Made by a program: the position numbers and the translations under genes
Notes under the pieces: model-generated
Databases searched by the model: none
Told to the model about the DNA's origin: nothing
What the model saw: only the letters and a program-made list of their open reading frames with translations
NCBI GenBank assembly: GCA_000165345.1
Contig: CM000431.1
Coordinates: 96,001 to 160,000, forward strand
Direction: 5' to 3'
Length of the DNA: 64,000 nucleotides
In this document: positions 40,878 to 43,168 of the stretch, one piece after another
How the letters are laid out: the number at the start of each line of letters is the position of its first letter
Position numbering within the stretch: the first letter of the stretch is position 1

Positions 40878-43168
40878 TTATCTGCTTGATTCTGAGTAAA
40901 AAAAATCATGATATTTAGGGCTCTTTAATACTGCTTGTTTCTGAGTTTGAGGCCTCGTATCATATCCTAAGTTAATATTTCTTCCAGAATGAAGTTGAAG
41001 AGTGTTTGCCTGTGACTGAGCTACATAATATGGTATAGTTTTTTCTGCTTCTCCGCCTTCACCTGAGTTCATATACTCAGGAGAGAACGTTGTATCCTCC
41101 ACAGAAACTATACTTTTTTTCTCTGGTGGAGCTATGTTTGAATCATAGCTGATACTTTTTTGGCTCATATGTACAATTTTTGACCCTTTTCTTGCTAGAA
41201 TTGGTTTTATTGAAGCAAGTTGCAAACTATTTAGCTTATTCCTAATTATTTCCTTGTTTGAATTGTCCACATTTTGAGCAGATTCAGTATCATCTGACCT
41301 TCTTCTCAAAAAGAAGACGCAACAAAACATTAATATAAGCAGAATCAATAGAATTCCAATAACTACCCCAATGATTAACTTTTTATTGACTGTTCGTTCT
41401 ATTACATCAAAATGCCCTTCTATTGACTTTTCCATCTTTACCTGCCCTGCTTCATTCAAATAACTCAATTCTTGGGTTTCTTGTGGATCATCGCTTTCAG
41501 AGTTAACATACTCTCCTGCTCCAAATCCCAATAATGAGTTTTCTGCCTCTTTATCAGAATTCATATCTATAATCCCAGAGTCCCTCTTGACTATGTTATT
41601 GCCTGTCAAAGAATTTGAGTTTTTTTTCACATAGGCGCTAGTCCTCACATTCTCTGTCTTTGGAGTATAGAGCGACTTTCCTGTAGTGTAGAATCGTGGC
41701 CTAAGAGTGGTTGTTGTGTTTTTAGTTGCTGTAGTGCTTTTCTTTGTGGTTGTCGTTTCTGTTGTTGTGGTTGTTGTTGTTGTGGTTGTGGTTGTGGTTG
41801 TGGTTGTGGTTGTGGTTGTTCTCGTAGTGGTTGTTGTAGTATTTGTAGTGGTGGAGGTGGAGGTATGTTTAGAACTGTTAGCAGGGTTATTCTTAGTGAA
41901 ATCATTATCAGAGGAAGTTGTGGTATTCGGGAATACTACTCCTTTAGAGGAAATGGTTGAAACATTACTTGAATAAACTTCTTCAACTCCTGAATTTCTC
42001 CCAATTGAAGAATAGTCTGAGAAAATAGGTTTTGTAACAGGAACCAATATATCTTCAATAGAGTCAGAACTCTGCTTGTAGATCATCTCCTCCAGGGTAT
42101 CGTTTCTTTCTTCATTCGCACGCCCGGATTCTGTACTATCAGACTCAAAACTTCCAGATGAGCTTCTATCCAAAGGATGGTATGTTGGTTGAGCGCTTAA
42201 ACCAATGAGCTTCATTTCATCAGACAAAGCTGGAATAGTACCTGGATCCTGATCCCAATAAAATGTTTTCTTCTGCTTATACCTTGGAAGATCCAAATAA
42301 GAATTATGGTAAACTTGGTCCCCTCCTTCGTTAGTTGAATCCTCTTTCCAGTTAAAGTTGATACTAGGAAAGTTTAACGAACTCTGATACGAGCTCCAAG
42401 CTGAGTCCAGGATATTTGAGACATTTTGACAAAGACCAACTGATAAATTATTCTCCCAAGCATCTGTACAGTTCAAATTATTGTAACCTGGAAGATCAAG
42501 CTTTGGCTCTTTACTAATAATTTCATCAGTCTGCTTAATTAGCTCTGAATATTTATTGGGATTCAGCCCACCAGAATCATAAGCTACTGTACCACAAACT
42601 GCACAAGAAAGCTCAGAATCTATAAGCCAACACGGCCTTCTTCCTAACCCTCCAATATCAAAAAAGCCACACTTTTCAAAGGGAAATTTGAATCTTAATA
42701 ACCAGCTTGCATTATAACTTGATGTCCAATTAATTTCAGAATCTCGAACTGATACGGGACTTCCACTATCTATCCAGTACCATCCTGGCGGATACCTGAA
42801 AAATGCATACTTTCTAAGTCCGACAAAACATCCATTTGCAGTCTTATGAATATCCCCTTGTTCCACAAGAGTTCTTCTGATTGCTTCTTCATCTGATAAC
42901 TTATATACTGAAGCCAATGTTACTGGGTACTCATTGGTTTCTTTAGACCCATTTCTTCTTCTTGTCTCTACTTCAGTTCCACCTAAATCATTGCAAGCCT
43001 TAAAACCGTGGGAAAATGTCCTAGGCCGGTCAAAAGTGACCAGCTTGAAACATCTTGTTTTCTCACCATTTGAAATCCATCCTTCCGGACAATTTGCATG
43101 GCCAGTATCTCCTAACTTGCTAACTTCTCTTCCAAAAACCCCAGAAACTACTATTAAACTTAATAATA
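40878..43168 (-). CDS. Thr-rich mucin-like type I membrane glycoprotein (main exon)
   Basis: The ORF track starts at TTG 42917. The same frame is open upstream to 43168 through a hydrophobic signal-like stretch (LVLLSLIVVSGVFG) with no ATG. Poly-Thr tract of ~46 residues encoded by a GTTGTG repeat, Ser/Thr/Asn-rich ectodomain, a single TM (IIGVVIGILLILLILMFCCVFFL), then a ~150-aa cytoplasmic tail. Confidence 0.7.
41748..41848. repeat. coding hexanucleotide microsatellite (GTTGTG/GTGGTT)n, encoding the mucin poly-Thr tract on the minus strand
   Basis: gtggttgtggttgtggttgtggttgtggttgtggttgt, a perfect run of >6 units flanked by degenerate GTTGTT/GTGGTA units. Confidence 0.8.

Follow-up and report, generated by a model that had tools for sequence, protein, structure and literature searches.

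A polymorphic in-frame coding microsatellite in the threonine-rich stalk of CpClec, a C-type-lectin mucin from Cryptosporidium parvum

The tracing of Cryptosporidium outbreaks leans heavily on gp60 (cgd6_1080), the standard locus for subtyping. Its poly-Ser array of TCA/TCG/TCT codons is a coding microsatellite which lies in frame within the O-glycosylated Ser/Thr part of a surface glycoprotein. Multilocus schemes require markers that are independent of one another and unlinked. Here we describe a tract of a similar kind, a GTTGTG hexamer repeat (ACAACC on the coding strand) located in a minus-strand gene of C. parvum which, to judge from its sequence, is that of the C-type-lectin mucin CpClec, with 775 predicted amino acids (aa) and one predicted 63-nt intron. 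The tract lies within a 64,000-nucleotide stretch of DNA (NCBI GenBank assembly GCA_000165345.1, contig CM000431.1, positions 96,001 to 160,000 of the forward strand), the whole of which is referred to as the window and numbered from its first letter. The tract is a usable but ordinary polymorphic coding microsatellite and a candidate marker of a well-known kind. Very probably, this in-frame microsatellite in the Thr-rich stalk of CpClec is turned over by slippage or exchange, giving units that are specific to lineages.

gp60 and the CpClec tract are alike in that both copy number and unit variants differ between isolates, and the arrays of C. hominis CpClec, (ACA)17-22, resemble gp60 as long, pure trinucleotide arrays. 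Unlike gp60, the CpClec tract encodes Thr instead of Ser, and the window allele has a 6-bp unit in just 6.8 perfect copies. A subtype nomenclature exists for gp60 and not for CpClec, and large non-repeat divergence defines the subtype families of gp60, whereas the CpClec flanks are nearly invariant. Variable-number tandem repeats (VNTRs) of mucin domains, such as the Ser/Thr/Pro repeats of the human MUC1 type, also form an extracellular Ser/Thr-rich stalk whose length varies by repeat copy number. MUC1-type units measure 60 bp and occur in hundreds of copies, whereas the CpClec units measure 3-21 bp and account for tens of residues.

With regard to unit length, the coding hexamers of Ramo et al. 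2016 are comparable: these are 6-bp units in genes, obtained by a repeat scan of the reference genome, and their alleles differ in 6-bp steps (PMC4746124). The loci (MSB, AGATAG; cgd1_3670, TGAGCC; cgd6_3940, TTGGCA; cgd6_5400, GTAGTG(A); cgd2_3850, CTGCTC(A)) had 1-6 alleles with a Hunter-Gaston discriminatory index (HGDI) of 0-0.35 among 104 isolates (PMC4746124). In contrast to these hexamers, the unit of the CpClec tract itself differs by lineage (ACAACC versus ACTACC), and sequencing is needed. The same paper refers to one minisatellite both as cgd2_3850 (abstract, methods, primer table) and as Cgd3_3850 (results, tables). Cgd3_3850 was considered as a chromosome-3 marker and rejected, as the primer table gives cgd2_3850 on chromosome II with the unit CTGCTC (PMC4746124). 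Li et al. 2013 examined 32 repeat loci on chromosome 6 in a C. hominis cohort, and 25 of them proved polymorphic (PMC3810731).

The gene carrying the tract is also the target of the Clec species-identification PCR/qPCR, in which the hemi-nested primers F2 and R1 bracket the tract (PMC5156390). Zahedi et al. 2016 used this hemi-nested lectin (Clec) PCR for species confirmation and obtained products of 656/506 bp in C. parvum, 668/518 bp in C. hominis, and 498 bp in C. cuniculus; the paper describes neither the repeat nor within-species variation, and its use of the locus was species confirmation and not within-species subtyping (PMC5156390). The primer sites in the window are the following:

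41683..41702, plus strand: Lectin R1 primer site, one mismatch in C. parvum, exact in C. hominis.
42170..42188, minus strand: Lectin F2 primer site, exact; the F2-R1 product is 506 bp and spans the tract.
42319..42338, minus strand: Lectin F1 primer site, exact; the F1-R1 product is 656 bp.

Conserved and unique flanks are available for PCR (F1 and F2 exact, R1 with its single mismatch), and the in-silico products on the window, 656 and 506 bp, equal the published C. parvum sizes exactly. The published C. cuniculus and C. parvum products, 498 and 506 bp, differ by 8 bp, which is not a multiple of 3 (PMC5156390); the printed C. cuniculus size is probably approximate, or a further sequence difference exists. 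A sequence-only reading of the window had presented the locus as previously unexploited. This is only partly right: in the literature searched, no use of cgd3_440/CpClec as a VNTR for within-species typing was found, but the existing Clec PCR already brackets the tract (PMC5156390). In the window, no site was found for the primers of ML1, a chromosome-III marker, or for the forward primers of four markers from other chromosomes.

A further locus, Chom3T, belongs to the multilocus sequence typing scheme of Gatei and Xiao, used for C. hominis and C. parvum; it is called a 'T-rich gene fragment' and is counted among simple-repeat loci that are 'normally polymorphic' (PMC7437029, PMC3936226). On the opposite strand the C. 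hominis tract reads (TGT)17-22, which would suit the 'T-rich' label. Chom3T presumably resides on chromosome 3, to judge from its name; neither paper states this. Chom3T may be the CpClec tract, which is offered as a lead.

Tandem Repeats Finder identified a period-6 GTTGTG array at 41761-41819 (9.8 copies, 94% matches) and overlapping period-12 and period-18 rows spanning 41744-41852. The tract is composed of the following elements:

41779..41819, minus strand: core microsatellite of the IOWA-type allele, 41 bp of perfect period 6 (exact-run scan).
41761..41819, minus strand: imperfect period-6 array including the degenerate 3' units ACA ACA ACA ACA ACC ACA ACA ACA (Tandem Repeats Finder and codon table).
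41820..41828, minus strand: 9-bp interruption ACT ACG AGA, encoding Thr-Thr-Arg (codon table, allele comparison).
41829..41834, minus strand: lone ACA ACC unit, 5' of the Thr-Thr-Arg interruption (codon table).
41706..41864, minus strand: Thr-rich mucin-like block of 53 residues (aa 448-500), 42 of them Thr and 3 of them Ser (translation, orthologue alignment).

'IOWA-type' is our label for the window allele and was taken from the CPATCC locus tags. In whichever register it is read, the core run holds six complete GTTGTG units and 5 further bases, or (ACAACC)6.8 on the minus strand, where it reads (ACA ACC)x6 followed by ACAAC in frame within the open reading frame (ORF) 40878..42917. Across the 64-kb window no second perfect period-6 run of at least 30 bp was found. 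The sequence-only reading had described a perfect, uninterrupted hexamer array; perfection holds for the 41-bp run, but the 9-bp sequence ACT ACG AGA precedes it. In 100,000 shuffles of the Thr codons that make up the 20-residue pure Thr run, a period-6 run of this length was reached 68 times, and 12 alternating ACA/ACC codons have a probability of ~1e-6 under the gene's own Thr codon usage. As codon shuffles rarely reproduce the run, we concluded that the periodicity is a DNA-level repeat and not a by-product of Thr coding.

The unit is in frame and a multiple of 3, ACA ACC encoding Thr-Thr in the 775-aa coding sequence. At its longest, a pure Thr run in the 775-aa protein extends over 20 residues (aa 463-482; window 41760-41819) and not over ~46 as had been stated; 46 is the number of Thr residues across an 80-residue stretch of CpClec, not an uninterrupted run. 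The perfect hexamer array supplies just 12 of the 42 Thr codons of the Thr-rich block. In other frames the tract gives rise to spurious ORFs, an 86-aa Pro-Gln repeat (41645-41905, minus strand) and an 89-aa poly-Val sequence (41707-41976, plus strand). The gene caller of the Logan contigs, short-read assemblies that reach the tract, called the Pro-Gln frame at a contig end and began the true C-terminal part at an internal GTG; the outcome was a 256-aa fragment clustering with C. meleagridis.

A first protein search with the CpClec ORF as query gave matches from neither C. parvum nor C. hominis; we therefore used the neighboring mRNA triphosphatase gene, which adjoins CpClec in all assemblies examined, as a handle to reach the tract in chromosome-scale NCBI assemblies and Logan contigs. 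Alleles were sized in silico as the published Lectin F2-R1 amplicon. Within C. parvum, the following alleles were observed:

Window, GCA_015245375.1 and GCA_035232765.1: 506-bp amplicon, (ACAACC) with a 41-bp perfect run.
GCA_048859185.1: 545-bp amplicon, (ACCACT) with a 62-bp perfect run of 10.3 units.
SRR31305056 and several DRR7292xx runs: ACTACC-type array (Logan contigs).
ERR14760746: single-nucleotide variant with ACA ACC ACA ACC ACA ACC ahead of ACTACC units (Logan contig).
DRR729209: array interrupted by a CCT (Pro) codon (Logan contig).

The GCA_048859185.1 allele is 39 bp longer than that of the window and has S-to-P and A-to-T changes in the block; over 8.4 kb, the second and last indel between the two sequences is a 3-bp ATC unit at 46934. 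In Logan contigs from other C. parvum runs, the flanks were ~99.9% identical to the window and the visible 5' parts of the array differed. These contigs all end inside the array; allele structure was readable, copy number was not. In SRR18691161, at least five ACAACC units abut the 5' flank directly, and T-to-R and A-to-T changes occur near the 3' end. A parity and k-mer argument gives a spacing of 6m bp for this allele versus 51 bp in the window, and its length therefore differs from that of the window allele, an argument which the complete alleles supersede. The Thr-Thr-Arg interruption is present in the window, in L006, L007, L021 and in most Logan C. parvum contigs, and is absent from the SRR18691161 allele and from C. 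hominis. Within C. parvum the flanks share 99.4-99.99% identity, and at least five alleles distinct in sequence occur in the few sources examined.

We considered the tract as a stable relic maintained by selection, monomorphic within species and useless for typing. The window, GCA_015245375.1 and GCA_035232765.1 do share an identical allele, which has only ~7 perfect units plus an interruption, and some C. parvum hexamer loci, such as MSB in northern Spain, are monomorphic or nearly so in field surveys (PMC4746124), and 7 of 32 repeat loci were monomorphic in the C. hominis cohort (PMC3810731). However, these three sequences are 1 nt apart over 8.4 kb and represent one lineage, and GCA_048859185.1 differs from them by 39 bp and in unit sequence. 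At least three further allele structures occur in Logan C. parvum contigs, and four C. hominis assemblies contain three sequence alleles. We rejected a monomorphic relic as having almost no probability.

Low-complexity tracts are a known weak point of assemblies, and the allele differences might be artefacts due to collapse, expansion or mis-polishing of the repeat. In line with this, short-read de Bruijn contigs break exactly in the repeat, and L013-L017 end irregularly, before or early in the array. However, the differences go beyond copy number and include the unit sequence (ACA versus ACT throughout) and unique interruptions (ACT ACG AGA, CCT). The ACTACC form recurs, independently, in a chromosome-scale NCBI assembly and in the contigs of several separate runs, the in-silico sizes of 506 and 518 bp match the independently published PCR sizes of C. 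parvum and C. hominis, and at 41-68 bp the tract is shorter than one sequencing read. An origin of the differences in assembly was rejected as very improbable.

The short-read contigs L001, L002, L005 and L008-L017 all terminate within or just before the Thr tract. Exactly 30 bases of perfect repeat are retained at the contig end in L001, L002, L005, L009 and L010, as is expected of de Bruijn assembly with k=31, the k of Logan. L011-L017 stop sooner, at scattered points within the array or shortly ahead of it, which could be due to low coverage or to mixed alleles within a sample. A metagenome scan with the conserved 3' flank yielded 0 matches.

Outside C. parvum, the same amplicon gave the following alleles:

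C. hominis GCA_001593465.1: 518 bp, ACT (ACA)17 followed by four ACC-led triplet groups.
C. hominis GCA_001483515.1 and GCA_002223825.1: 518 bp, (ACA)21 followed by three ACC-led triplet groups.
C. hominis GCA_045269125.1: 524 bp, (ACA)22.
C. tyzzeri GCA_007210665.1: 509 bp, degenerate tract.

The window and the four C. hominis assemblies differ by ~2.7% over 8.4 kb (flanks ~97.3% identical). In C. meleagridis, a 21-bp unit, ACCACAACAGCAAAAACCACA, occurs in one copy in one assembly and in two copies in another. The (ACA)17 and (ACA)21 alleles of C. hominis are equal in length (518 bp) and unlike in structure; therefore, fragment sizing alone misleads and sequencing is needed. All complete alleles differ by multiples of 3 bp (segments of 186, 225, 198, 204, and 192 bp).

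The length polymorphism within species that had been predicted from the sequence was observed in C. parvum (506 versus 545 bp) as well as in C. hominis ((ACA)17, 21 or 22; 518 versus 524 bp). Repeat counts compared across assemblies were not identical among isolates, so the uniformity that would have spoken against the prediction did not appear. Expansion and contraction were borne out insofar as the number of units varies, but the changes are not a plain gain or loss of GTTGTG, as the unit is ACTACC elsewhere and interruptions come and go.

CpClec was assigned as the gene product on the basis of database matches, the fit of the Clec primers and protein layout. The top matches are Cryptosporidium proteins named 'C-type lectin containing protein', from C. 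meleagridis (87%) and chipmunk genotype I (80%), with matches of lower identity in C. canis, C. felis, C. xiaoi, C. ryanae, and C. andersoni. The long ORF 40878..42917 begins without an ATG, and an upstream exon and an intron complete the gene model, the features of which are:

43232..43268, minus strand: exon 1, ATG plus 34 nt, start of the signal peptide MRLINELKDCLI (splice model).
43169..43231, minus strand: 63-nt intron, GTATGT...TTTAG, with the in-frame stops TAA and TAG (splice model).
40878..43168, minus strand: exon 2 of the CpClec orthologue, stop codon included (ORF list, orthologue names).
42570..43091, minus strand: C-type lectin-like domain, approximate limits (distant homologues only).
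41310..41378, minus strand: transmembrane helix LIIGVVIGILLILLILMFCCVFF, aa 610-632 (inspection and weak transmembrane-type profile matches).
40902..40913, minus strand: YHDF, a sorting-type Tyr-x-x-hydrophobic motif of the cytoplasmic tail, aa 765-768 (alignment).

The spliced product starts with MRLINELKDCLIVLLSLIVVSGVFG, in agreement with the models from chipmunk genotype I and C. canis, which are likewise spliced. Annotations of C. meleagridis (792 and 799 aa; L003, L004) read through the equivalent of the intron and thereby add the residues GKFDSGASEIILYINHYCVNLV, while the chipmunk genotype I and C. canis models splice out the same intron; this difference in intron handling among Cryptosporidium models is probably an annotation inconsistency. 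In two C. hominis assemblies CpClec is annotated as a product of a mere 449 aa.

By inspection, the protein has a type-I membrane layout with a hydrophobic N-terminus (aa 1-25), one transmembrane helix, and the YHDF tail. CpClec had no direct match to Pfam Lectin_C (PF00059) at E <= 0.1, and a PDB profile search yielded nothing but weak transmembrane-like matches and no C-type lectin structure. An AlphaFold2 model of the lectin domain, built from 8 sequences, was unusable, with a mean predicted local distance difference test score (pLDDT) of 42. When 1.84 billion representative proteins were searched with a profile of the N-terminal domain, 12 non-orthologous relatives were matched (E 1.6e-15 to 7.6e-4), and in 9 of the 10 of these that were scanned Lectin_C scored above its curated cut-off in the matched region. 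As these distant proteins carry Lectin_C, the lectin assignment holds via intermediate sequences. In an alignment of 10 orthologues, lectin domain, transmembrane helix and tail are nearly invariant, whereas the Ser/Thr stalk between lectin domain and helix differs in length and composition in every species. YHDF or YHEF is kept in most orthologues; two C. canis models stop short of the motif. The block within the stalk is predicted to be extracellular and consists of Ser or Thr at 45 of 53 positions, as is typical of mucin-like sequences, and the earlier proposal that the tract encodes the Thr-rich mucin domain of a mucin-like surface protein, in the stalk before the transmembrane helix, stood. 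Native CpClec reportedly runs at ~120 kDa, above its predicted mass, in work of 2013 attributed to Bhalchandra et al.

In reviews, CpClec is presented as a C-type lectin that is both located at the surface and secreted. The identifier cgd3_440 is assigned to CpClec in one review (PMC12688253) and to the rhoptry protein CpPRP1 in another paper (PMC8710574). CpClec lies at ~138-141 kb of a ~1.10-Mb chromosome in C. parvum assemblies. This position fits a low cgd3 number but is no proof.

The combination of conserved flanks, changes that are exclusively in frame, and homogeneous arrays specific to lineages would be the signature of slippage and/or unequal exchange. Each 6-bp unit would add Thr-Thr to the stalk, a low-complexity region that may act as a spacer, presumably O-glycosylated, holding the lectin domain off the membrane. 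Replication slippage, possibly together with unequal exchange at meiosis, would expand, contract and homogenise short units, and point substitutions creating Arg, Pro, Ala or Lys codons would interrupt and stabilise the arrays. Different lineages would in this way homogenise different units at one site: ACAACC in IOWA-type and ACTACC in other C. parvum, ACA in C. hominis, and the 21-bp unit in C. meleagridis. Such turnover would be accepted because the spacer tolerates gain, loss and replacement of units as long as they are in frame, and we infer that stalk length is nearly neutral with respect to selection.

Several points weigh against this reading. Slippage is read from the pattern, and O-glycosylation of the stalk is presumed from the CpClec literature. 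Of the four complete C. parvum sequences, three have the same tract; since they are near-identical over 8.4 kb (the window is 1 nt apart from GCA_015245375.1 and GCA_035232765.1), they probably stem from a single laboratory lineage and do not count as independent. Their identity suggests that the tract is stable when passaged in the laboratory. Just one complete C. parvum allele outside the IOWA type is available, the Logan contigs stopping inside the repeat, and the copy number of any single assembly may err in low-complexity DNA.

Alternatively, diversifying selection on an exposed adhesin, by immune escape or host adaptation, might drive or retain the variation; in that case attachment would depend on how long the stalk is, on its charge (Arg, Lys, Glu insertions) or on its density of glycans. 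Between the window and SRR18691161, both non-synonymous changes of the gene fall in the mucin block and the five coding changes elsewhere are all synonymous. Similarly, C. parvum and the C. hominis-like contig L002 have a single difference in 256 C-terminal residues while the stalk is rebuilt, and a location at the surface or outside the cell, as given in the reviews, would expose the protein. However, relaxed constraint on a disordered spacer predicts the same pattern, and the numbers are tiny, with 2 changes versus ~0.3 expected (P ~0.05, rough Poisson estimate). That amino-acid changes cluster in the stalk is compatible with selection and with relaxed constraint alike, and we regard selection as a rather unlikely driver compared with slippage and exchange in a tolerant spacer.

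The window contains other repeats. Its top-scoring tandem repeat is a (GAT)n array at 28529-28630 (plus strand; ~34 copies, 87% matches), located within the minus-strand ORF 26821..40083 (4420 aa). By a frame check made by hand, its coding strand reads TCA/TCG/TCT poly-Ser, the codon type of gp60, and it is longer than the CpClec hexamer. An (ATC)7 repeat at 46934-46955, 5 kb from the CpClec tract, resides in the minus-strand ORF 46478..48082 of an amino-acid transporter. C. parvum GCA_048859185.1 and C. hominis GCA_045269125.1 have one ATC unit fewer (533 versus 534 aa), making this a second small polymorphic coding microsatellite. At 51172-56118 (plus strand) are three tandem paralogues of triose-phosphate/nucleotide-sugar transporters (Pfam TPT; 432, 394, and 389 aa), followed by a PAN-domain protein at 56635-58782 (minus strand). 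Other genes of the window serve ordinary housekeeping functions and encode a short-chain dehydrogenase, a CAF1 ribonuclease, a DEAD-box helicase, an ABC transporter, and the mRNA triphosphatase.

The CpClec tract lies in another chromosome region than gp60, and primers for it are already published. Tentatively, and with the odds rather against it, the tract might constitute a formally undescribed chromosome-3 locus for sequence typing, distinguishing IOWA (ACAACC)6 from field (ACTACC)n alleles and the 17-22 ACA units of C. hominis; it could add resolution, and variants might alter adhesin function or antigenicity. If this is true, multilocus schemes would gain a chromosome-3 anchor in addition to the added resolution, with a C. 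hominis array of a length similar to that of the gp60 tract. Field C. parvum is poorly represented by the reference (IOWA-type) allele. Furthermore, the tract is a likely site of gaps or mis-assembly in CpClec gene models because short-read assemblies break at it. For the biology of the parasite, the tract adds one more apicomplexan adhesin in whose stalk repeats turn over, which does not overturn current understanding.

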